From a virus, in the IMG/VR virus record IMGVR_UViG_3300043178_000087: a stretch of 64,000 nt of DNA; one strand, 5' to 3'. The translations under genes were made by a program, and so were the position numbers. Of this stretch, positions 28,241 to 53,850 are shown in pieces; position 1 is the first letter of the stretch, and each line of letters opens with the position of its first letter. The notes beneath the pieces were generated by a model. The model ran no database searches. It was not told where the DNA came from and worked only from the letters and a program-made list of their open reading frames with translations.

Positions 28241-28268
28241 TTGACAAATTTCACGCCGTAGACATAAT
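28241..28268 (+). promoter_or_regulatory. Early-type promoter TTGACA-16-CATAAT (leaderless)
   Basis: ATG lies 5 nt after the -10 box. Confidence 0.8.
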
Positions 28269-28273
28269 ATAGC

Positions 28274-29050
28274 ATGAACGAGAACACCATGAGCAGCAAG
28301 ATGTTGGCCGTCTATATTGGCGACACTCCGTTTGTATGCTGCGTGTGCGGAACCCGGCATCGCGGCATTGGCAAGCGCCTCGATACCGTGACGGCCTGCT
28401 TCTACGAGCTGGCCCACGAGGCCGGAGCGCACGCCCCGGATGGCTTGCAGAGGCGGAGACGGCGGCCGAACCTTTACGAGCCGTATGCGCGGTGGAAGGC
28501 TGCCGACCTCACGCGGGTCATTTGGCCCGAGAGCATGGGTTCGGACATCGACTTGAAACTGGATCAGTACCGCCACGCCCTCGCCGCTGACACGCGGGAG
28601 ATGGGTGTCGCCTTCCTCAAGTCGGTGATCGCGGATTGGCGCGCCCAGCAGGACGCCAAGGAGAAGGACCTTTGGGCGTCCGAGCATAAGCCGGACATCA
28701 AGGTCCGTGGCCGTTTCGGGATCACCATCTGCCCCAAGGACGAGGCAAGCTACAACCGCACGTCGCTGCAATCCCTCGAGACGGCCATGCTCATGTTCAA
28801 GGACCCGTCCGTGGCATCCATCGCATCCACGGTCAGCCGCGAAATGGAGTGCGTGGAGCTTGATTGGACTGACGTGCGGAAGCCCGCACGGATGCTTCTG
28901 GTCAAGGACATGGACGACGATAAGGCCCCCAAGCTTGACGAATGCTATCTGCTTGGCAAGGACTACTGGTTTCAGAAGGTTCCGCGCCGTGTTGGCACCA
29001 TCAAGGAAGCCGAAGCCTATCTCACGATTCAGAAGTTGACAAATCGCTAA
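28274..29050 (+). CDS. Hypothetical protein
   Basis: Directly after a promoter; stop codon lies inside the next promoter. Confidence 0.7.
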   Translation: MNENTMSSKMLAVYIGDTPFVCCVCGTRHRGIGKRLDTVTACFYELAHEAGAHAPDGLQRRRRRPNLYEPYARWKAADLTRVIWPESMGSDIDLKLDQYRHALAADTREMGVAFLKSVIADWRAQQDAKEKDLWASEHKPDIKVRGRFGITICPKDEASYNRTSLQSLETAMLMFKDPSVASIASTVSREMECVELDWTDVRKPARMLLVKDMDDDKAPKLDECYLLGKDYWFQKVPRRVGTIKEAEAYLTIQKLTNR

Positions 29051-29747: not shown

Positions 29748-29775
29748 TTGACAAAACGAACGATTAGGACATAAT
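29748..29775 (+). promoter_or_regulatory. Promoter TTGACA-16-CATAAT (leaderless)
   Basis: ATG lies 5 nt downstream. Confidence 0.8.
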
Positions 29776-29780
29776 AAGCC

Positions 29781-30578
29781 ATGAACATGAGTCCGCTGTC
29801 CAACATCCCGCAGGACGCCCCGCTTCCGAAACCGGTCCTCAAGGACATGGGCTCCGAGGAACTTGAGGTCGCTGCCACCAACGCAGACGCGGCCAGCTTC
29901 CTCGCCCGTCTGATGGGCAAACCTGTGGACGTGAAGCGATCCGGCATCACGGCGGACTCCGACACCATCCGGGTGACGCGGGTTCACGGGCGGCTGGTAT
30001 ACCGGCATCTGCACCCGCAGGACCCCCCGACGATCATGGTGGCCGATCCCGAGGTCCGCAACGGCTACGTCTGCCCGTCCTGCGGCGACGAGCTGGACAG
30101 CGCCACGGCCAAGGCCCTCGAAGCCGACGTGAAGATCGAGGAGTACGCCGTCTCCTACAAGGAGAAGGAGGACAAGGAGTTCGCCGACACCCCCGTGGAG
30201 GCGGTCGGAAACGCCAAGTCCGAGTTCATCCACAAGGTCAAGGTCTATAAGCGGACGCCTGACCAGATCAGGGAGTACGTCGGCAAGATGGCCGGGCTGG
30301 GCAACAAGATCGTCGGCTACGAGGTCGAGGAGGAGACGTTCGCGGACATGATGCGGGCGCAGGGCATGGATCCCGCGACGGCTGGCAGCCTCGTCATTAT
30401 CCCCGGCCAACCAAACACTGCATCGGACAAGACCGGGGTGCAGATCATCACGCTCTACTTCGAGGACAAGCGGGCGTTGTACGCCTTCTTTCAGGACGAG
30501 AAGGTGAACAAGTTCCACAAGCGCATGAACGGGCAGGACGTGATGGAGGCCGAGGACAAGCAGGATGAGGGTTCCTGA
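29781..30578 (+). CDS. Hypothetical protein with CxxC
   Basis: CPSCG; strong GC3 bias. Confidence 0.7.
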   Translation: MNMSPLSNIPQDAPLPKPVLKDMGSEELEVAATNADAASFLARLMGKPVDVKRSGITADSDTIRVTRVHGRLVYRHLHPQDPPTIMVADPEVRNGYVCPSCGDELDSATAKALEADVKIEEYAVSYKEKEDKEFADTPVEAVGNAKSEFIHKVKVYKRTPDQIREYVGKMAGLGNKIVGYEVEEETFADMMRAQGMDPATAGSLVIIPGQPNTASDKTGVQIITLYFEDKRALYAFFQDEKVNKFHKRMNGQDVMEAEDKQDEGS

Positions 30579-37772: not shown

Positions 37773-38794
37773 CCGATCCCAAGGCCGGAACATTCGGCGT
37801 GGTCAACTTCCGCAAGAGCAAGCCCATCTCCCTGTGGGTGGGCGGCAGGTGGCACCTACTAACGAAGCGTACGCTTTCCCTCACCGTCACCGGATCGAAG
37901 GACGTGATGAAGGAGATGGCGCAGGTTCTCCGCAAGAGGTTCCCCAAGCTTACGATCCGGCTGGTGCCTTACGAGGAACTGGTGCCGTGGCTGGTGGGTT
38001 CGGCCATGGCTGGCGTGCCTGATGACGCACAACGGCCCATTCTATTTATGGGACCGGCGACGACTGTGAGGATCAAATGAGCGACCTGGGCCACGAGTAT
38101 CAGCGGATTGAACAGTTCAAGCGCGAGGCCAACGGCGACCGGATCGTGTTCGAGAAGAAGATTCTTCTCCGATCCGGCAAGGTGTCGGCGGTCAAGCGGG
38201 AGCGGTTCGCCTACGCGCTCCGCAAGCTGGGCGAGGACGAGCTGGCCCAGCGCGTGCTGATGGTCGGCGCGATGAAGGAAATGGCCCAGTAGCCATGACC
38301 GAGCAGGAAATCAAGGCCCAGCTGCTGGAGATCGCAACCCTCCCGCTTGCGGAACTGGTTCCGGCTGGCCGCGCCTTGACAAAGGCCGTCAAGGACCAGT
38401 TTGGCGGCACGGAGGCTCTAACCGCGCTTCCTGAATGGCGGGCCTTGGTGAAGGCCCGTGGAAGGGAGATTGCGGCCTACAGGATGCCGCTTCAGGAAGG
38501 CAAGCCGTGAGCGCGGAGAACTGGGTCATCATGTCCGAGCTGGACACCTGTTCTATCAGCGCCCCCACCGTCATTCTGGACACCATGAAGGCGATACTAC
38601 CCGTACAGTTCTGGACCGGGACCGCGTGGGTCATGAATGAGGCCCAAAAGGCCAAGTGGTTTCCCAGCAAGGAGGCCGCCGATATCGAGGCGGTCGCTGC
38701 CGCCTTGATCTTGCCCAAAGGCTGGCTGATCGGCGTGGTGACCGAGACGGCCATTCCTGCTCCGCCTGCTGTTGACACCGAGGAAGTGACATGA
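37769..38794 (+). CDS. Run of four small coupled hypothetical genes (37769-38080, 38077-38292, 38295-38510, 38507-38794)
   Basis: Overlapping stop/start codons and phage-like codon usage. Confidence 0.55.
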
Positions 38795-39002
38795 CCACGG
38801 GGACCAAGGCCGATCTGCTTTGCCTCTTATCCTGTTCAGCATAATCACCGTGGCGCTCGCCATCCAGCGTTGGTTCGACGGGGACCGCTGGCCGGTGTTC
38901 GCCGTCTGCCTCCTGCTCCTCGTTCTGATCTGGCGGTTCATGACCGCGATCTTCAAGCTTCGGGATCGTCAGGCCATCGAGCGAATAATGTCCCAGCGTT
39001 GA
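38791..39002 (+). pseudogene. Small membrane protein with an apparent -1 frameshift at ~38820
   Basis: ATG 38791 is coupled to the upstream stop; the two-TM reading frame continues in the -1 frame. Confidence 0.45.
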
Positions 39003-39026
39003 CAAATCCGCCGCTAGGCACATAAT
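38999..39026 (+). promoter_or_regulatory. Promoter TTGACA-16-CATAAT (leaderless)
   Basis: ATG lies 5 nt downstream. Confidence 0.8.
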
Positions 39027-39031
39027 AAGTC

Positions 39032-40354
39032 ATGGAAATCAACGAGCGGATCAAGCAGTTGTTCCAGCGGCAGATCGAGAAGAACGCCGCTGCCGTGACA
39101 CTTGCCATGCGCCGTGGGCTGATCGAGGCCGAGTCCTTGGACCCGGCCAACCCTCACCACCGAGACGCCGTCATCAAGTACGAGGCAGGGAAAACCCCGC
39201 CCGCCAAGTTCGTGAAGACTGCCGACCTTGTGGAGCTGGACATGCTCATCAACAGCAAGAACAAAGCCAACAGGGAAGCGGGGTGGGAGGAAATCGAGGC
39301 GCGGTTGTCCGAGGGGCAGACCAAGTTCCTGATGGACATCATCCAGAACAAGGCTCTTGTGTCCGTCACCAGCGGCACGCAGGAGTGGGACAAGCGAATC
39401 ATGGACAGGCTGGTTCCCGTCCTTTCCGACGTTGCCATCGTGTCCGAGGATAACTGGCAGAGCGTTCGACGTTTCATCAACGCGGCCACCGAAGAACTGA
39501 TCGTCAAGGCCCGCGCCAACACCAAGCGCAAGGCCACCATTGCCGCCGTCGCCAGCGGTCAACAGGTCCGCCGTGCCAAGAGTGCGGACCCGCTTGCGTG
39601 CGCCATCGAGGAAGGCCAGTATGAGCGCATGAGGAACATCCACATCGAGGAAATCAAGCGGGAGCGGTGGGAGGAAGTGCGCGAGGCGTGGCTGGCTTCC
39701 ACGGAGGACAAGATCAAGGTACATCTTATCCGGCTTCCGTTCGAGTTCATCCAGCCTCACCTTCTGACGGCGCTGGAGGCCGAGGCCGCCGTCTGTCCGA
39801 CTCATTTTGACAAGTGCCACAGGAAGTGGCCAGTCCCCAAGAAGTCCCTCAAGGATCTGTCCCCATCCGCGCTGGTGTATCACCTGAAAGCCGTGTGCAA
39901 CGGCACCAGCAAGGTGGACGCCCCGATCACCGGGCAGGATCTTGTCTCCGATCTGGCCCCGATGCTGGTCATGGAGGCCCTGCACAACCCCGAGGTCACT
40001 TCGGTCACGCATTGGCTGGAAGGGCTTCGCAAGGCGCGGAAACTGCTGGGGTACAAGAACCATCCCGCCGCCCGCACGGAACAGGAAGCTGCCATGATCG
40101 AATGCGTCATCACGTCCCTCGACGGCGATTACATCAATAGCGATTCTGTGGAATACTTCTCCAGAGCGGGCAGCAGCTTCGCGGATGCCATGAAGCTGTT
40201 CCTGAATCTGGACGAGGCCACGCAGAAGCGGCTTGCCGGAACCATCCTCTCGTCCAAGGTGTCTTCTTACGGAAGGCATACGGTGGAAGAAGCCATGAGC
40301 AGTTTGTTCCGCGGCCATCTGACCAATTACGACGCTTTTGGAGCGGACATTTAA
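39032..40354 (+). CDS. Helical hypothetical protein, paralog A
   Basis: Shares DPL..AIE.G..R......E....ERW....EAWL with the next gene. Confidence 0.7.
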   Translation: MEINERIKQLFQRQIEKNAAAVTLAMRRGLIEAESLDPANPHHRDAVIKYEAGKTPPAKFVKTADLVELDMLINSKNKANREAGWEEIEARLSEGQTKFLMDIIQNKALVSVTSGTQEWDKRIMDRLVPVLSDVAIVSEDNWQSVRRFINAATEELIVKARANTKRKATIAAVASGQQVRRAKSADPLACAIEEGQYERMRNIHIEEIKRERWEEVREAWLASTEDKIKVHLIRLPFEFIQPHLLTALEAEAAVCPTHFDKCHRKWPVPKKSLKDLSPSALVYHLKAVCNGTSKVDAPITGQDLVSDLAPMLVMEALHNPEVTSVTHWLEGLRKARKLLGYKNHPAARTEQEAAMIECVITSLDGDYINSDSVEYFSRAGSSFADAMKLFLNLDEATQKRLAGTILSSKVSSYGRHTVEEAMSSLFRGHLTNYDAFGADI

Positions 40355-43554: not shown

Positions 43555-44113
43555 TGTCAGGAGCGGCAAGATCGCCCTCCTGCCGCTGGGCCGCCCGCCG
43601 GAGTTCGATGCGCTCAAGGCGGACATCCTCAAGCTTGTGGCCGAGGAGAAGCCGGAGATCTCCGAGAACTACGGCGGGGTCATGCAATGGACCCTGTTCA
43701 GCCCCAACTCCGACATGGCCGTTCCCATGAAGAAGGCCCTCCAGACGCCGGGGAAGATCACGTTTCACCACGCGGACAAGTACCCGGTTGTGGCGGCGTT
43801 CCTGTCCAAGAATCCGGAGCTGATGACGTGTCGCATCATCGGCGTCGGCCCCGGCGGCGGAGTGCCCAAGCACAAGGACGCCAACATCGCCGGGGGCATC
43901 GTTGTCTGCCGGTTCCACCTGCCCATCCAGACCGCCGAGGGCATCGACATGGAACTGGACGGCAAGCTTGTGGAGATGGAAGAGGGAATGGTCTACCTGT
44001 TCAACTTCGGGCTGGAACACCGCTCCCTCAACCGCAGCCAGACCGTCCGACTGCACCTGATTTGGGACCTTCCCCTCATTCCCGAAGTGTGCCGAAGGCT
44101 GTTGACAAAATAG
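43526..44113 (+). CDS. 2OG-Fe(II) oxygenase, Asp/Asn beta-hydroxylase-like (start uncertain)
   Basis: VPKHKD..RFHLPIQT..MEEG..Y.FN..LEHRS.N...RLHLIWD. Confidence 0.75.
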   Translation: MTTPQSLPGDVRSGKIALLPLGRPPEFDALKADILKLVAEEKPEISENYGGVMQWTLFSPNSDMAVPMKKALQTPGKITFHHADKYPVVAAFLSKNPELMTCRIIGVGPGGGVPKHKDANIAGGIVVCRFHLPIQTAEGIDMELDGKLVEMEEGMVYLFNFGLEHRSLNRSQTVRLHLIWDLPLIPEVCRRLLTK

Positions 44114-44129
44114 GTTTTCGTGACATAAT
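44102..44129 (+). promoter_or_regulatory. Promoter TTGACA-16-CATAAT (leaderless)
   Basis: ATG lies 6 nt downstream. Confidence 0.8.
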
Positions 44130-44135
44130 AGGCAT

Positions 44136-44497
44136 ATGAGCGACATCGGAATCGGCAAGCTCGTCGGCGGAGATGCCAAGCGGGACGCCATCCATCCCGC
44201 CGGGTGCGCCTGCACGCAGGCCGCCAGACGCGAACGCGAGATCGAGGAGAACAAGAAGGCTGGCCAGAAGCTGGCCGAGATCTTCGCCGCCAAGCTGGCG
44301 GAGCCGCCCCTCAAGCCCGGCGTCAAGGTCCGCCCCACCCCCAAAGAGCCCGGCGAGAGCTACATCAAGAGCTTGGCGGTGGAGCTGGACGGCGACGACG
44401 ACCGAGATCCCATCGAGCGGGCGCAGGACATCCTCTCGACGCGGTGTGCTGCACCGGGCTTCGGACGGACGAGTTCAACTGGGAGCTGATTCCGTGA
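44136..44497 (+). CDS. Hypothetical protein, probable -1 frameshift at ~44435
   Basis: The -1 frame LDAVCCTGLRTDEFNWELIP* has phage-like codons and its stop overlaps the next GTG. Confidence 0.5.
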
Positions 44498-45732: not shown

Positions 45733-46258
45733 TTCCGCCCTGTCGCGCCGCGACTGGCCCCGGCTTGGCAACGGGATCGTCGTGGGTCAGGTCGCCCAAG
45801 CCTACAACTTCCGCAAGTGTCAGGAGTGCAAGGCAGAGCTGGTGCAGGGCGAACCTGCTCTACAGTTTGGGGTCAGCGTCACCAACATCAGCAACGGATC
45901 CACGGCCACTAGCGAATGGTGCGTGTCCTGCGGGATCAAACTGCTGGCCTCCCTCCAGTCGTGGGCCGCCGAGGCGCAGGACTGGCTCTCCAAGGCCAGC
46001 AAGGAAATGGAGGCGTTCAGCGTGGCGCGGGCCTTGATGGGCGGGGCGGATCGTGCCAAACTGACCGCGCTGCTCAAGAAGTCGCTGCCCAAGAACTTCT
46101 GCCGCAAGTGCTGTCACGCCCACGAAAGGCATGGGCGCAGACAGGTCCATGGTGAAAATTGGTGTTCGTGTTGCGAGGTCGAAGATGACAAAGAAGAAGC
46201 TGGAACAGCCGGAGCAGAAGACGCAAACCATCCCGATGTTCAAGGTGCTGTTCCATAA
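45725..46258 (+). CDS. Cys-rich hypothetical protein
   Basis: CQEC..CVSC..CRKCCHAH. Confidence 0.55.
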   Translation: MPDSALSRRDWPRLGNGIVVGQVAQAYNFRKCQECKAELVQGEPALQFGVSVTNISNGSTATSEWCVSCGIKLLASLQSWAAEAQDWLSKASKEMEAFSVARALMGGADRAKLTALLKKSLPKNFCRKCCHAHERHGRRQVHGENWCSCCEVEDDKEEAGTAGAEDANHPDVQGAVP

Positions 46259-46478
46259 CGACGACAAGACCACGATGGAGTTCGTGGTTGCGGTCCTCGT
46301 GGAGATCTTCCGCAAGGATCAGGAGTCCGCCGTGAAGATCATGATGGAGGTCCACGAGAAGGGCATCGGCCTCGTCGCGGTCGAGCCCTACGAGCGGGCG
46401 GAGTTCCACCGGGATCAAGTGGTCAGCCTCGCCCGTGCGCGTGGGTATCCTTTGGCCGTCAGCATCGAACCGGCGTAG
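46185..46478 (+). CDS. clpS: ATP-dependent Clp protease adaptor ClpS
   Basis: PMFKVLFHNDDKTTMEFVV.VL..IF....A..IMMEVHEKG.G.V..YE.AE..GYPL. Confidence 0.92.
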   Translation: MTKKKLEQPEQKTQTIPMFKVLFHNDDKTTMEFVVAVLVEIFRKDQESAVKIMMEVHEKGIGLVAVEPYERAEFHRDQVVSLARARGYPLAVSIEPA

Positions 46479-46506
46479 TTGACAAACGCCAGCTTAGTGA
46501 CATAAT
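46479..46506 (+). promoter_or_regulatory. Promoter TTGACA-16-CATAAT driving a non-coding region
   Basis: No plausible + strand ORF before the next promoter. Confidence 0.8.
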
Positions 46507-46509
46507 AGA

Positions 46510-46752
46510 GTGTCGCAGGGCCGTCCCAAAAGGGCGGTCAGCCCGAATCAACGGGGTGGGCGTTAACGCCCACGGACTCCGATCAAAAGGGGCCGTCTCC
46601 TGCCGGAATCAACCGGCTGCGCGACCAAACTTGTTCTGCGGCTGCGGCGGATCGCCACGTTGATTAATCCGCGAGTGTAAGGTCGACCTGTCGCAGCCGC
46701 ATTACTTTGGACGAAGATGTTCTACGAACAAGGCGGAGCCCTGTCGCAGGCG
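46510..46752 (+). ncRNA. Candidate structured ncRNA (~240 nt)
   Basis: Promoter-driven, ORF-free, with multiple hairpins and nested long-range stems. Confidence 0.6.
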
Positions 46753-46761
46753 CTCGCCAAG

Positions 46762-46789
46762 TTGACAAATCCAGCCATAGAAACATAGT
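46762..46789 (+). promoter_or_regulatory. Promoter TTGACA-16-CATAGT
   Basis: Followed by an AGGAGG RBS. Confidence 0.75.
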
Positions 46790-46807
46790 AAAGTAGGAGG
46801 ATTGACC

Positions 46808-47662
46808 ATGAGAAAGATCGTGTGGCTGCCCATCCTGTTGCTGATCCCCAACTTCGTGTTCGGGGCCGGGCAGGACGACCTCAAGGAGGGGAAGACCCTG
46901 CTGGTGGCGGGGGACTACGACAAGGCGTTCCCGCTCCTCGCCAAGAGCGGCGACAAGCTGCTGGCCCCGCTGGCGGAGCTGGAGCTGTCGAAGCCCACGG
47001 ACTTCATGGCGACGGCGGCGGCCTACAAGGACGCCGTCAAGAAGGCCCCGGCGGTTCTCAAGCTGACGCTCGTGGACCGGATGGTCTACTGGTACGGGAA
47101 GAAGTGGCACAGCACCGTGGACGAGAAGGAGAAGGCGGAACTGCGGAAAATCTTCAACCAGATCGAGCCGGTTCCTCCCGGCGCGGACAAGTTCGGGAAG
47201 CCCGGACCGCAGCCCTCCGGCTGGAACTGGGACTACAAATTTGGATGCAACGTGGAGCAGGAGTTTGCCCGCAGCGGCAAGTTCGCTGGCAAGGTGGTCA
47301 GCACCGATCCACCGCCCGCCGGTCGCCAGATGCTTGCCACCATCCCGATCCCTGCTGCGGCTGGAAAGACCTACACCCTGACGGCGTGGGTATTCTCGAC
47401 CGCGAACGTGGATGCGGGTTGCGGCCTCCAGCTACTGGACATGGACGGCGGGACGCTCAAGCAGGTTGGGAAGGGCGTTCCGCAGGACAGCCCGTTCTGG
47501 CAGAAGGTAAGTACCGAAGTCGTAGCCCCGGAGGGGACGTTCAGGATCGTGTTCTCCGTTGTAGCCAAGGGGATGTCCAAAGGGGCCATCTGGATCGACG
47601 ACGTTTCTATCAAGATGGACGGCGTGGAAGTCCTCAAGAACGGCGGGTTCGAGGGGAAGTAG
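46808..47662 (+). CDS. Secreted protein with a carbohydrate-binding-module-like (CBM4/9-like) domain
   Basis: Signal peptide; GKTYTLTAWV..WQKV..AIWIDDVSI..LKNGGFE. Confidence 0.6.
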   Translation: MRKIVWLPILLLIPNFVFGAGQDDLKEGKTLLVAGDYDKAFPLLAKSGDKLLAPLAELELSKPTDFMATAAAYKDAVKKAPAVLKLTLVDRMVYWYGKKWHSTVDEKEKAELRKIFNQIEPVPPGADKFGKPGPQPSGWNWDYKFGCNVEQEFARSGKFAGKVVSTDPPPAGRQMLATIPIPAAAGKTYTLTAWVFSTANVDAGCGLQLLDMDGGTLKQVGKGVPQDSPFWQKVSTEVVAPEGTFRIVFSVVAKGMSKGAIWIDDVSIKMDGVEVLKNGGFEGK

Positions 47663-47995
47663 ATGCGCGTGATGTACGTCGTGGGTTGGGAGTTCGCGGA
47701 CCCTTCCATCGTCTTGGAGACCGACCGGCGGTTGGCGGTCCAGAAGGTGCTGGAGTCCGCGTGATCGTCTGGCGATGCCCGGCTTGCGGCTGGATCGGCC
47801 AAGAGCTTAGGAGGTGCCGTCCCGAGCAGCCGTCCGACAGCTGTTTGGGGCATTGTCCGAAGTGCGACGTGGACGTGATGCTGGACAGGCTTTCGGATCT
47901 GGAAGCCGCCGTCTGGTATGGTCAGCAATCCGCGAAGTAGACGAAACCCCACGCCGCGTCGTACACTCAGGCAGGAGAGCGCCTTTGGGGGAGAC

Positions 47996-48256
47996 ATGGG
48001 CGAGAAGTACTGCGAGGTCTGCACCATCAACGTTGCGGCGATGCGCGACACTCGCGAGTTCCGCAACATCGAGAACGCCCCGGACGCCCACGAGTTCGTC
48101 GTCTGCGGCAAGTGCAGCCGCCTCAACAACTTCTGGTTCGCCCGGCTGTGGCGGGCCAACGACAAGGAGCGCGTGCTGACCGAGCTTCTTGAGGGGTCGT
48201 GGGAGAACTGGGCCGCCCACCGCGACGATCCACCGGAAAACGACGAAGAGGCTTGA
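47996..48256 (+). CDS. CxxC hypothetical protein
   Basis: CEVC..CGKC; GGAGA RBS. Confidence 0.6.
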   Translation: MGEKYCEVCTINVAAMRDTREFRNIENAPDAHEFVVCGKCSRLNNFWFARLWRANDKERVLTELLEGSWENWAAHRDDPPENDEEA

Positions 48257-48280
48257 CAAAGCAAAGTCATAAGTTATAAT
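48253..48280 (+). promoter_or_regulatory. Promoter TTGACA-16-TATAAT
   Basis: Perfect hexamers. Confidence 0.85.
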
Positions 48281-48285
48281 ACGGC

Positions 48286-48358
48286 ATCGAGACTTTCCCT
48301 CTCTCGGCATGGCGGGGGACGGACCCGCAACGGGTTTTCCCCCGCCTGCTTCTTTTTT
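48286..48358 (+). ncRNA. Candidate small RNA (~70 nt) with intrinsic terminator
   Basis: Promoter, 5' hairpin, GC stem 48311-48346, then a T-tract. Confidence 0.55.
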
Positions 48359-48362
48359 GCTG

Positions 48363-48391
48363 TTGACAAAGCGCGGCTTCAGGCGTATAAA
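48363..48391 (+). promoter_or_regulatory. Promoter TTGACA-17-TATAAA
   Basis: Directly after the sRNA terminator. Confidence 0.7.
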
Positions 48392-48392
48392 T

Positions 48393-48648
48393 TGACAGTA
48401 GCCCCGGTACAGGTGTTTGGACCACTTGTAACGGGGCCGGTAACAAGGCAGCGGTCGGAGAGGCCCCGGTGTTTGACGCCCGGCGTTGTACTGTCTTCGC
48501 ATCTCAACCCCTTGTAGAGGGTGTTGGGCGTGCTGTGGGATGGTCGGTACCGAAAAGTTTTGGCTGGCTCAGGCCGGTCAGACGCCTCTTCGCTGCCTTC
48601 CGACCTGCCACGTCCAACACGTCCGACGCTCTCTACAAGGGGTTTTTT
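48393..48648 (+). ncRNA. Candidate structured ncRNA/leader (~250 nt) upstream of the replication module
   Basis: Stems GACAGTA/TACTGTC and AACCCCTTGTAGAG/CTCTACAAGGGGTT, followed by a T-tract. Confidence 0.55.
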
Positions 48649-48659
48649 ATTTCCCCTCA

Positions 48660-48676
48660 ACTGCACACTATGCAGT
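48660..48676. promoter_or_regulatory. Palindrome copy 5 ACTGCA-CACTA-TGCAGT
   Basis: Between the T-tract and the RBS of the first replication-module gene. Confidence 0.65.
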
Positions 48677-48689
48677 CGGAGGGTGTCCG

Positions 48690-49121
48690 GTGAGCCAAGA
48701 CAGGCTGGTTGAGACCTACAAGGAGTGGGTTGAGGTCGCAGGAGGAAAGCAGGAGTTCGACCGCCAGTTCTACAATTTCGACTTCCCCGGCCTTCAGCCT
48801 TGGTACAAGACCGTCTTCAAGGGCATCGTCTACTACCTCACCGAGGACGAGCTTTCTTCCGCCAAGCAATTCGCCGAAGAATGCTGCATTTCCATGGCGC
48901 AGCTCGACCAAGCGGTGGAGTTCTGGAAAGAGCTGGGTGTCTGGAGCTGGGTAGACAATCCTGACGGCATCCGCGAGTTCTTCTTCCTGAAGTCTCCTCT
49001 AGATGTCCGGGTCCAGCTCATCGTCCAGATCGACGGCAAAACCACAGTCAACACCACCGATGTTTCCGAGATCGAAAACCTTACGAAGAATGGGAGGGGG
49101 ACCGTTCGTGGCGAAAACTAG
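48690..49121 (+). CDS. Hypothetical, possible winged-HTH protein
   Basis: GGAGG RBS. AEECCIS..QL..AV.FWKELGV resembles the HTH of the next gene. Confidence 0.55.
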   Translation: MSQDRLVETYKEWVEVAGGKQEFDRQFYNFDFPGLQPWYKTVFKGIVYYLTEDELSSAKQFAEECCISMAQLDQAVEFWKELGVWSWVDNPDGIREFFFLKSPLDVRVQLIVQIDGKTTVNTTDVSEIENLTKNGRGTVRGEN

Positions 49122-50990: not shown

Positions 50991-51208
50991 TCCCCGACTA
51001 CCGCCCCGGCACGCGACTTGGCCCCGAGAAGCCTCTGGACAAGCCGCCGAGGATCGGTCGTCGTCACACGCCCATTCCGAACAAGTTTCGTGAAGAGGTG
51101 CGGGTCGGCGACAGATATGCGCCATGTCCGGGTTGCGGGAACATCTACAACATGACCATGCGGCGGTGTTGTCCGAACTGCGCCTGCTCTTCCAAGAAAG
51201 GCTCTTAG
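50987..51208 (+). CDS. Small Cys-rich protein
   Basis: CPGCG..CCPNC; coupled start. Confidence 0.5.
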   Translation: MIPDYRPGTRLGPEKPLDKPPRIGRRHTPIPNKFREEVRVGDRYAPCPGCGNIYNMTMRRCCPNCACSSKKGS

Positions 51209-51219
51209 GTTTCAAAGCT

Positions 51220-53850
51220 ATGAATCTCGACGGCATCATCGTCAAAAAACTGGTCAAACAGGGCGGTCTCGCTGAGGCGACCAAGCTTGGGCTGACCCCG
51301 GCCATGCTGTTCAGCGAGGGCCGCGACGGTCTCGCTTTCGTGACCGAGCATTTCACCAAATACGGGACTCTTCCCGACTGGGACACGCTGGTGGACGAGA
51401 TCCCGGCCATGAACGACGTGGACGACAACGGGATCAGCGAACCGCTGGAATACCTTGTGGACAAGGTACTTTGGCGGTTTCGCGGCAACCTGATTCAGGA
51501 CGGAATGGCGAAGGCCACCAACTTCCTGTCTTCGTCCAAGCCCGACGAGGCCATGAAGGTCCTGGGCGAAGCCGTAAGCAGAGCACAGGAGGCCGTCCGG
51601 GATGCGAAGGCGTCCACCGTCATCATGACCGAGAAGGCGGACATCGACGAGGCGTGGGCGGACTACCAGCACCGCAAGGCTCTGGGCGGACAGCCTGACG
51701 GGCTTCCGACGCCGTGGCCTGCCATCACGAACGCCACGATGGGCATCCATCCCGGCGAGCTGTGGTTCATCGTCGCCCGCCTGAAGACTGGCAAGTGCAT
51801 CGACGGAGATACGCTCATTCCTGACCCGGTGACTGGCGAATGGCGGACCATCAAGCAGGTGTACGAAACCCGCGCTGAACGCGGACGCGTGCTGACCTTG
51901 AACAACAAGGCGAGCATCGAGGCTACCACTCCTACCGAGTACTGGGACAGCGGAATCAAGGAATGCGTGGAGGTTGTTACCAGATCCGGTTTTCGGCTGA
52001 CCGCACCGCCTAACGATCCTCTGTTTACTCCCGATGGGTGGGTGAAGTTGGAAGACCTCAAGCCCGGAGTGCAGTTGGCTGTTGCGGCGCGTGTGCCGGA
52101 ACCTGAGTGTCCCGAGCCGATGCCTGATTGGGAAGTGGACCTTCTGGCGGGAATGATCGCCGAAGGCGGAACCACCGGCAGACAGGCAACGTTCACCAAT
52201 CTTGATCCGGCTATCGTTTCACGCATCAAGACGGCGGTCGCTTCCGTGGACTGCCAGCTGAAGCAGTATCGTGGAGCGAATCCTTGTGAGTGGGTCATCA
52301 CCACTACGCAAAAGCTGGCGCACCTCCAGAAGACGGGCATTCGACTGTTGATGGAGAAGCACGGTTTGTGGGGTGTTCGTAGTACCGATAAGAGCATCCC
52401 CAACGCGGTGTTCAAGCTGCCGAATTCACAACTCGCCCGGTTTCTCGGGATGCTCTGGTCTTGCGACGGGAGCGTACACGCCAGATGCGGAACGTTGACG
52501 TATGGCGTCGTATCGAAGCGGTGCGTCGAGCAGGTTAGGCAACTCCTGCTCCGGTTTGGAATCTCGTGCGTTCTCCGTGAAAAAAGCAGCAGGCTTTCCG
52601 ACGGGCGTCCGTACGTGTCGTGGGAGCTGACGGTCAAAGGTGAAAGCAAAGATGCTTTTGTTGCGAACATCTCGTTGGTTGGAGCGAAGGCCGAGCGTAT
52701 CAAGGGAGCTGTTCCTGACCGTCGTCATCCCGTGTACGACTATGTGACCGCCTCTTCTCAGACGCGGGCTTGGATCAACGATACCGTGGCGCGGTCTGGA
52801 AAAACGTGGGCTGATTTCTGGGCGTGGTGCGGCTGGTCGTCCAATAAGGACGGCCGAAAGTCCAGCGGTGTTCGTGGGCTGATAAATCCCGCTACGCAGC
52901 ACATCCCGAGGACCCGGCTTCGGAAGTTCGTGGAGTTCTTCAAGCCTGAAGGTCGTGAAGAGCTGACGAGCCCTGATATTTGGTGGGACGAGATCGCATC
53001 CATCAAGCCGGTCGGCAGGCGGCATGTTTACGATTTGACCATTGACGGTTCTCACAACTTCGTTGCTGCCGGGGTTATTGCGCACAATACGTGGGCCTTG
53101 TCGCTGTTCGCCCGCGAGACGTGGGAAGTGGCGAAGAAGCCGCTCCTGTTCGTCACGATGGAGATGCAGCCCAAGCGCATCCGCCGTCGTCTGCACGCGC
53201 TGTGCGGACGCTTCCCGTGGGGCGACTTCCTCAAGGCCAAGCTGAACCCGGAGGTGGAGAAGAAGTACCGGGACTTCCTTGACAGCCTGAACGGGATGCC
53301 GAAGCTTGTCGTTGTGGGGTCGGATCGCGTCTCCAAGCCCCGTGACGTGGAGATGCTGATCGAGCAGGAGAAGCCGGGGCTGGTCATCATCGACGGCGTG
53401 TACTTCATGTCCGGCAAGGGTGACGCCGGATGGGAGCGGCTCAACGATGCGGTGACCGGCATCCAGCGTATGGCCATCAAGAAGAACGTTCCCATCCTCG
53501 CGTCCAGCCAGTTCAACAAGGGCGTCGGCAAGGACACCGACGAGGCGCAGGCGTCCGACATCGGTTACGCCTACGGCATCGCACAGGCCGCCGACGTCCT
53601 CATGGGCATCTACCGCACGCCCGAGCTGGAAGAAGTCAACCGCATGAAGATCGAGCTGATGGAAACCCGAGACACGCCCAAGGCGGCCATCCTCGCCAAC
53701 TGGAACCTGACCACGATGGACTTCACGCAGGCCGAGGTGTTGTCGGACGGCAACGATGGCCTTCCCATGGGAGGCCCGGCGGCCGTGGATGCCATGTCGG
53801 CGTCCGTCGGCACCGAGCCCGAATCGGAGAATGGAGGAGTGGAATACTAG
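51220..53850 (+). CDS. dnaB: DnaB-like replicative helicase with intein
   Basis: ARLKTGK|T, FVTMEM, VIIDGVY, SQFNK, DIGYA..QAADV. Confidence 0.9.
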   Translation: MNLDGIIVKKLVKQGGLAEATKLGLTPAMLFSEGRDGLAFVTEHFTKYGTLPDWDTLVDEIPAMNDVDDNGISEPLEYLVDKVLWRFRGNLIQDGMAKATNFLSSSKPDEAMKVLGEAVSRAQEAVRDAKASTVIMTEKADIDEAWADYQHRKALGGQPDGLPTPWPAITNATMGIHPGELWFIVARLKTGKCIDGDTLIPDPVTGEWRTIKQVYETRAERGRVLTLNNKASIEATTPTEYWDSGIKECVEVVTRSGFRLTAPPNDPLFTPDGWVKLEDLKPGVQLAVAARVPEPECPEPMPDWEVDLLAGMIAEGGTTGRQATFTNLDPAIVSRIKTAVASVDCQLKQYRGANPCEWVITTTQKLAHLQKTGIRLLMEKHGLWGVRSTDKSIPNAVFKLPNSQLARFLGMLWSCDGSVHARCGTLTYGVVSKRCVEQVRQLLLRFGISCVLREKSSRLSDGRPYVSWELTVKGESKDAFVANISLVGAKAERIKGAVPDRRHPVYDYVTASSQTRAWINDTVARSGKTWADFWAWCGWSSNKDGRKSSGVRGLINPATQHIPRTRLRKFVEFFKPEGREELTSPDIWWDEIASIKPVGRRHVYDLTIDGSHNFVAAGVIAHNTWALSLFARETWEVAKKPLLFVTMEMQPKRIRRRLHALCGRFPWGDFLKAKLNPEVEKKYRDFLDSLNGMPKLVVVGSDRVSKPRDVEMLIEQEKPGLVIIDGVYFMSGKGDAGWERLNDAVTGIQRMAIKKNVPILASSQFNKGVGKDTDEAQASDIGYAYGIAQAADVLMGIYRTPELEEVNRMKIELMETRDTPKAAILANWNLTTMDFTQAEVLSDGNDGLPMGGPAAVDAMSASVGTEPESENGGVEY
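51796..53088 (+). mobile_element. LAGLIDADG intein in the DnaB Walker A (431 aa)
   Basis: CIDGDT...VYDLTIDGSHNFVAAGVIAHN|T; LAGMIAEG and LGMLWSCDG. Confidence 0.92.

Follow-up and report, generated by a model that had tools for sequence, protein, structure and literature searches.

A putative cis-acting leader RNA with a conserved five-hairpin domain in a lineage of freshwater phages

What is made from a stretch of phage DNA that follows a consensus promoter, holds no gene and is predicted to fold into a series of hairpins? The question is raised by positions 46507-46752 of the window (the whole 64,000-nt stretch of viral DNA analysed here, part of a phage contig of ~98 kb; the source is freshwater metagenomes), which an earlier note had described as a novel phage ncRNA. 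To our knowledge, regulatory RNA is a nearly blank field in the phage genomes of uncultured freshwater hosts. The explanation that we favour, with a confidence a little short of even, is that promoter P1 gives rise to a structured 5′ leader RNA without coding function, the first domain of which (domain 1) acts in cis. The features referred to below are collected in Table 1.

Table 1. Positions of the element, its predicted parts and the flanking features in the window.
Feature	Position	Strand	Remarks
ClpS-like adaptor gene	46185-46478	+	Pfam ClpS, E = 8e-27; directly 5′ of promoter P1
Promoter P1	46479-46506	+	TTGACA-16-CATAAT, with TG extension
Domain 1, conserved core	46512-46625	+	Predicted five-hairpin junction, 114 nt
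Helix P1 (closing)	46512-16 with 46621-25	+	
Helix P2	46519-39	+	
Helix P3	46542-55	+	Loop AAUCAA
Helix P4	46556-73	+	
Helix P5	46574-94	+	Loop GAUCAAAA
Unpaired GUCUCCU	46595-601	+	
Helix P6	46602-17	+	Loop AAUCAA
Variable linker	46626-46636	+	~95 extra structured nt here in L015
Domain 2, long hairpin	46637-46701	+	14-bp GC-rich basal stem
Debris of the lost 113-aa gene	46717-46760	+	Aligned to L015 625-1012
Promoter P2	46762-46789	+	TTGACA-16-CATAGT; in L015 within the 113-aa gene, at its 3′ end
284-aa signal-peptide protein gene	46808-47662	+	AGGAGG 7 nt upstream; weak MAM/CBM-like match

The element does lie between two consensus promoters (P1 and P2), as had been noted, and the stop codon of the ClpS-like gene abuts the -35 hexamer of promoter P1. 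The whole window has 13 matches to TTGACA-N16/17-YATAAT versus 0.02 expected, all on the + strand, in the right half and upstream of genes; the gene-sized ORFs 3′ of the promoters are likewise all on the + strand. The distance from promoter to gene is mostly 5-30 nt, long leaders being the exception. At four sister promoters (28241-28276, 29748-29783, 38999-39034 and 44102-44138) an ATG begins 6-7 nt after the -10 hexamer, which suggests that they give rise to leaderless mRNAs and is maybe a clue to the host. Because the ATG stands there, +1 is placed 6-7 nt past the -10, and transcription from promoter P1 should by this spacing start at ~46512, exactly where the closing helix of domain 1 begins. 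Where the RNA starts and ends, and that the element is transcribed, are what we infer from its sequence. The terminator scan called nothing between promoter P1 and the next gene, now that of the 284-aa protein; the clear terminators of this phage carry T6-T8 tracts, and a strong one is located downstream at ~48331-48358.

The surroundings have features of their own. Relatives of the ClpS-like adaptor (46185-46478) are found in 68 IMG/VR viral loci at 34-53% identity, and the N-terminal 18 codons of its gene are replaced in two of the contigs discussed below, L005 and L006. The sole other homologues of the 284-aa protein (32-36% identity) are encoded on bacterial-looking contigs, beside a response regulator or a DUF817 gene, and its gene looks like a moron acquired from a host; the DNA upstream of these bacterial homologues is too short to inform. 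A second promoter-driven, ORF-free stretch (48253-48700) lies 1.5 kb downstream of the element. It comprises a perfect promoter followed by a ~70-nt hairpin unit with a T-rich terminator, and TTGACA-N17-TATAAA at 48364-48393 followed by a long rod with a 14-bp closing stem. The sequence 47987-48693 contrasts with the present element in being shared, at 68-71%, with L007, L008 and L011, which are distant relatives. Further on, a DnaB-type helicase gene (51124-53850) is interrupted by an intein with a LAGLIDADG endonuclease domain.

The description of the stretch as ORF-free was borne out: its longest internal ORF has 35 aa, begins with GTG and lacks a Shine-Dalgarno site, and gene callers run on L003-L006 and L015 placed no gene in the element. 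A protein-coding gene or leader peptide was rejected, the changes between copies being structure-preserving and not synonymous. ARAGORN found neither a tRNA nor a tmRNA, in agreement with the earlier note, and the Infernal/Rfam search that it had proposed gave no Rfam 15 family at gathering score in the whole window. At E<=10, Rfam matched nothing inside the element and only at chance level around it; the full L015 leader likewise gave chance-level matches only. CRISPR-DR models had no match in the element, and their one weak match (E = 0.09) falls on the minus strand of the 284-aa gene; nothing in these results speaks for the anti-CRISPR decoy of the earlier note, which would have to resemble a CRISPR repeat of the host in hairpin and flanks.

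For the whole 246-nt stretch the folding energy is -109.6 kcal/mol; its z-score is -3.4 for the + strand and -3.1 for the - strand. Domain 1 alone folds at -59 kcal/mol with z = -4.3, none of 200 shuffles being as good, and with z = -2.8 for its minus strand in the window. The minimum-energy structure of domain 1 is also the centroid, and the consensus fold agrees with it. The z-scores of the L015 domain 1 are -2.1 on the + and -2.3 on the - strand, showing no + strand advantage. Five hairpins, with loops CAAAA, AAUCAA, UUAA, GAUCAAAA and AAUCAA, are enclosed by helix P1. The hairpins named in the earlier note were all seen in the predicted structure, and the sequence features that it had listed are each present in the window where it had placed them. 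In domain 1, and in domain 2 as far as its core stem, that anatomy is right; comparison with relatives shows it to be wrong at the outer closure and the 3′ end, where it had taken in gene debris.

Copies found by exact-protein look-ups and homology searches represent four variant lineages, all from freshwater metagenomes. L003 and L004, which encode the same 97-aa ClpS-like product (an exact-protein look-up), are near-identical to the window, L004 having one SNP at 46697. L005 and L006 differ from the window by ~5.5% at third codon positions, and L015, the nearest outgroup, by ~18%. Distant relatives (L007-L012, L014 and L016) encode a ClpS that is 69-75% identical and have no gap after it, three small genes coming directly next; promoter P1 and the RNA are therefore a lineage-specific insertion. 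The order in L015 is ClpS, promoter P1, domain 1, a ~95-nt structured segment, a full domain 2, AGGA and a 113-aa gene, followed by a P2-like promoter in the 3′ end of this gene and then by the 284-aa gene. The element is, in L015, the ~315-nt 5′ UTR of the 113-aa gene, the product of which is 43-46% identical to a 118-aa protein of L007-L010 and L016 whose gene stands two genes after ClpS. From this gene order and homology it follows that the element began as the ~315-nt leader of the 113-aa gene. Contigs from further runs of other studies have the same two architectures, with and without that gene. Right after the 284-aa gene, L015 has a gene for a T4 endonuclease V-like pyrimidine dimer glycosylase (1903-2316; Pfam Pyr_excise, 1e-26), and the window sequence differs at this place.

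We also considered the element as the remnant of a gene present in relatives, and rejected this: tblastn with the 52-120-aa proteins encoded after ClpS in L007-L014 gave no match, and a tblastx match of the L015 leader to the 118-aa gene was noise, being out of frame and containing stops. No further copies were found by blastn of 46131-47700 against GenBank phages, by exact and gapped domain 1 patterns in IMG/VR, JGI metagenome contigs and GTDB genomes, or by scans guided by the 284-aa protein and, in IMG/VR, by the 113-aa family. A metagenome scan with the 113-aa family returned only L016 and L017, both without the element, and a covariance model (R1) run over the window, 14 related loci and the 68 ClpS-encoding IMG/VR loci recovered known copies only. 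The domain 1 covariance model had a chance-level match at 38293-38394 on the minus strand (18 bits, E = 0.04), near an inverted repeat (38193-38209 / 38333-38349). On the sequence evidence, the element is a non-coding, structured one outside any known RNA family and, so far, in one phage lineage.

The 113-aa gene is deleted in the window, in L003/L004 and in L005/L006, and the ~95-nt middle domain is lost in these gene-less lineages. What is left of the gene in the window is its start, ATGTTCT, and three short internal fragments in the original order. GAACAAG, the third TGTCGCAG and the last hairpin all lie inside this debris. Owing to the deletion, the CTTGTTC/GAACAAG stem that the earlier note had drawn around domain 2 is partly gene debris, as is the third TGTCGCAG; alignment to L015 shows the 3′ quarter of the proposed RNA to be such debris. 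The proposal of a novel phage ncRNA therefore holds in part: promoter-driven, non-coding, structured and of no known family, the element is not free-standing by origin, being a leader in L015.

The CTTGTTC/GAACAAG stem is present in the window, and this closure is confined to the window lineage and not conserved: where the window has CTTGTTC, the linker reads TTGAAGATT in L005, L006 and L015. The linker CAAACTTGTTC, specific to the window, is perfectly complementary over 7 bp to GAACAAG in the debris (46724-46730), and could have arisen by a templated mutation of the quasi-palindrome type. Sequestration of the start region of the L015 gene by the linker was seen in one fold and gone in a longer one, and is not a robust prediction; no switch helix or stable alternative pairing was found, the predictions shifting with the length folded.

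Domain 2 is likewise altered. A 25-nt deletion of apical 5′ strands has shortened it in the window and in L003/L004, which are independent samples, removing the 5′ strands of three helices; L006 has a 3-nt deletion in a bulge. The intact domain 2 of L005 has z = -5.6, its + strand scoring above its - strand. An unpaired stretch, UAAGGUCGAC, is invariant, and there is an asymmetric 10-nt internal bulge, likewise invariant. The SNP of L004 turns a G-C pair of this domain into G-U. The 14-bp GC stem is followed by AUUACUUU (5 U in 8); with these and the bulge, domain 2 might serve for RNA processing or as a weak terminator.

The repeats that had first drawn attention fared unevenly in the comparison. 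TGTCGCAG does occur three times on the + strand within 240 nt (7 times in the whole window, 2.8 being expected), and we rejected it as a conserved triple motif, since relatives do not share copies 2 and 3: they have CGTCGCAG or CGCCGCAG in place of copy 2, and copy 3 is in the debris. The identical AATCAA loops are likewise present in the window. The two hairpins that carry them are parts of a direct repeat of 22 nt whose copies are spaced by 61 nt, an internal duplication that also includes the only two occurrences of GAATCAAC in 64 kb, and a third, looser copy of the repeat is found in the middle domain of L015. The loop of helix P3 is AAGCAA in L015, and its exact sequence is therefore not essential. 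The 18-nt palindrome, present in the window, is broken in L015. A loop-to-bulge kissing interaction of AAUCAAC (helices P3/P6) with GUUGAUU in domain 2 would have 7 bp in the window and L005; the case for it is weak because there are 6 bp in L015 and the GUUGAUU partner is deleted in L006.

Domain 1 differs from the window at 2/114 positions in L005/L006 and at 7/114 in L015. In the two flanking genes, 20/365 (5.5%) and 67/365 (18.4%) third codon positions, respectively, have changed, giving p = 0.07 for L005/L006 and p = 0.0007 for L015 and an evolution of domain 1 ~3x slower than that of third codon positions; against all codon positions averaged, domain 1 is no slower than the flanking genes (p = 0.2-0.3). 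Between the window and L005 or L006 domain 1 has no indels, and both of its changes preserve pairing. The rest of the leader has 11/133 changes plus 27 indel columns between the window and L005 (p = 0.02 versus domain 1). Unpaired positions of domain 1 are changed at 2/44 in L015, and the 3′ 53 nt of the domain (helix P5, GUCUCCU, helix P6 and the 3′ strand of helix P1) are invariant in all copies. These patterns indicate that domain 1 is under purifying selection at paired and unpaired positions alike. The hexamers of promoter P1 are kept in L015, where 9/16 spacer bases differ, and in L005/L006 except that the -10 is CATAGT instead of CATAAT. Domain 1 and promoter P1 are conserved while the rest decays, and these two are therefore the maintained unit; the leader 3′ of domain 1 looks like a decaying expression platform.

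The substitutions also point to the strand. All 6 paired-column changes among the window, L004, L005 and L006 are transitions in which pairing is kept via G-U on the + strand; the same six changes on the opposite strand would give A-C mismatches. In L015, one pair of helix P3 has changed from C-G to G-C, a compensatory change, and helix P2 has two wobble-preserving changes. The upper part of domain 2 shows two double-sided pair changes between L005 and L015 (A-U to G-C and G-C to A-U), along with several wobble-preserving ones. Pairs changed on both sides and still pairing number 3, against ~0.1-0.4 expected, and in slid-partner controls the paired fraction fell from 97-98% to 26-52%. The stems are broken in L015 at one position of helix P4 and at the outermost pair of helix P2; of two further breaks, one is in L006 and the other at the inner hairpin's tip. 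The covariation that the earlier note had called for is thus seen at three pairs, and it rests on these three events because only four variant lineages are available, all within ~18% synonymous-site divergence. The changed stem of helix P3 matches that of helix P6, making gene conversion between the repeat units possible. Taken at face value, the helices are kept by compensatory and wobble changes that are sensible only for a + strand RNA.

The reading that we favour takes the element as a cis-regulatory leader. The transcript would begin at ~46512, at the helix closing domain 1, and the layout of promoter-proximal, helix-closed domain, variable structure and, ancestrally, ribosome-binding site is that of such a leader. 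L015 has this riboswitch-like layout: promoter P1 is followed by the conserved domain 1, by variable domains and, after AGGA, by the start codon (ATG) of the 113-aa gene. The window lineage has lost the gene and the middle domain, and domain 2 is eroding in it. As no terminator is called before the next gene, transcripts from promoter P1 should cross the debris and promoter P2 into the 284-aa gene. Domain 1 would be a specific recognition module, aptamer-like or protein-binding, working perhaps through its duplicated A-rich hexaloop hairpins, and would control or stabilise downstream expression of its own transcript; the variable 3′ part would be its former expression platform, and the transcript would also be protected by the pairing of its 5′ end. 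The repeated hairpins might bind a protein. The retention of domain 1 after the gene loss implies that it serves the read-through transcript into the 284-aa gene or has a gene-independent role; a cis role is not needed for expression of the 284-aa gene, because promoter P2 immediately precedes it. That domain 1 represents a new class of phage RNA recognition module, a small-molecule aptamer or a host-protein decoy, displayed on the duplicated hexaloop hairpins and working independently of the gene, we hold to be unlikely; such independence would explain how domain 1 and its promoter survive as orphans while the rest decays.

Several other accounts have to be weighed against a cis-acting leader. 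Domain 1 might instead leave its transcript, by release or termination 3′ of the domain 2 hairpin, and act in trans, for instance as a decoy or sponge that catches a host or phage protein with its repeated A-rich loop hairpins. This idea, which is that of the earlier note, seems to us rather unlikely. It would fit that domain 1 and promoter P1 are intact after the loss of the gene, that loops and junctions are conserved, and that a hairpin with its 3′ flank is duplicated in domain 1, with a third copy in L015; the domain 2 stem and AUUACUUU could yield an RNA of ~190 nt, and from the second promoter-driven, ORF-free unit 1.5 kb downstream this phage seems to make small RNAs. Ancestrally, however, the element is placed as a 5′ UTR in which domain 2 is followed at once by a Shine-Dalgarno site. 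Its end has no canonical terminator of the kind that this phage has elsewhere, the AAGCAA loop of L015 shows that loop identity is not required, and GGA or another known protein-binding motif is absent. Alternatively, the element may have served the lost 113-aa gene alone and now be neutral DNA whose decay is pending. The regulated gene is indeed gone, the middle domain is lost, deletions have reached domain 2 in the window and in L006, and 2 changes in 114 nt are only marginally low (p = 0.07), because the window and L006 differ by only 5.5% at third codon positions. Such a vestige is improbable in view of the contrast between domain 1, without indels and with two pair-preserving changes, and the adjacent 133 nt, and of the retained hexamers of promoter P1.

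An action at the level of transcription, in which domain 1 would modify the very RNA polymerase that transcribes it (processive antitermination, as with HK022 put or a nut-like protein-loading site) or domain 2 would be an attenuator, we consider very unlikely. The position immediately downstream of an early-type promoter, starting at +1, the multiple short hairpins with conserved loops, a function independent of the gene that follows and the strong terminator downstream would all agree with it; five hairpins in a closed junction are unlike the two-hairpin put or boxA/boxB, though, neither a boxA-like CGCUCUU nor a G-initiated pentaloop is present, and the next modules have promoters of their own, so that read-through is not obviously needed. 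We give least credence, and very little, to an element that works as DNA, be it as an array of operators, a signal for packaging, an origin or hairpins of single-strand DNA. Palindromes (GTGGGCGTTAACGCCCAC, GGTCGACC and GATTAATC), repeated short motifs (AATCAAC twice together with an inverted GTTGATT, besides the copies of TGTCGCAG) and two GATC sites are present in the element. Against this, conservation in L015 or L006 is lacking for the 18-nt palindrome, for GATTAATC and for 2/3 of the TGTCGCAG copies, pairing kept through G-U is a mismatch on the other strand and irrelevant to duplex DNA, and the compensatory changes keep hairpins, not sequence.

As a leader RNA the element makes a clean case, with a strong, defined promoter, a predicted start exactly at the closing helix and a 114-nt junction conserved in stems and loops. 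Sister phages with and without the downstream gene furthermore provide a natural experiment that separates the selected domain 1 from dispensable parts. Should domain 1 turn out to have a ligand or a protein partner, it would represent a new class of RNA and offer a way into the early takeover of the host by these phages; the narrow distribution and the thin covariation make it a moderate lead rather than a discovery.

Among known systems, CsrB/Rsm sponges present multiple GGA (ANGGA) motifs in hairpin loops. Like CsrB, RsmY and RsmZ, the element has several short hairpins with similar loops, and titration of a protein is conceivable; unlike them, it has no GGA loops, no Rfam match and no terminator-bounded unit, and ancestrally it is a 5′ UTR. 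Nothing found here speaks for the CsrB/Rsm-type logic that had been suggested for it, GGA being in none of the five domain 1 loops, and the results favour the sponge idea itself as little as they contradict it. HK022 put consists of two stem-loops, and lambda nut of boxA and a boxB pentaloop hairpin. The element resembles these in being promoter-proximal and structured on a putative phage early transcript and in that it could act whatever gene follows, and differs from them in its five hairpins in a closed junction and in having no boxA-like sequence. The early leader of T7 carries RNase III processing hairpins; the long, interrupted hairpin of domain 2 is placed similarly, 3′ of a promoter-proximal leader and 5′ of the first gene's ribosome-binding site, without any sequence relation. 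The nearest analogues are motifs in the 5′ UTRs of phage genes, of which manA and wcaG are examples. Both of these RNAs come from cyanophages and are candidate motifs of the riboswitch or 5′ UTR kind (Weinberg et al., 2010; PMC2864571). Unlike these, the element belongs to one narrow phage lineage and matches neither their models nor any other in Rfam; the gene that it would have regulated is lost in the window, and its gene context is not related to a ligand. In common with manA and wcaG, it comes from metagenomes and places a conserved domain of several helices 5′ of a phage gene, in the UTR, with variable sequence after this 5′ domain.
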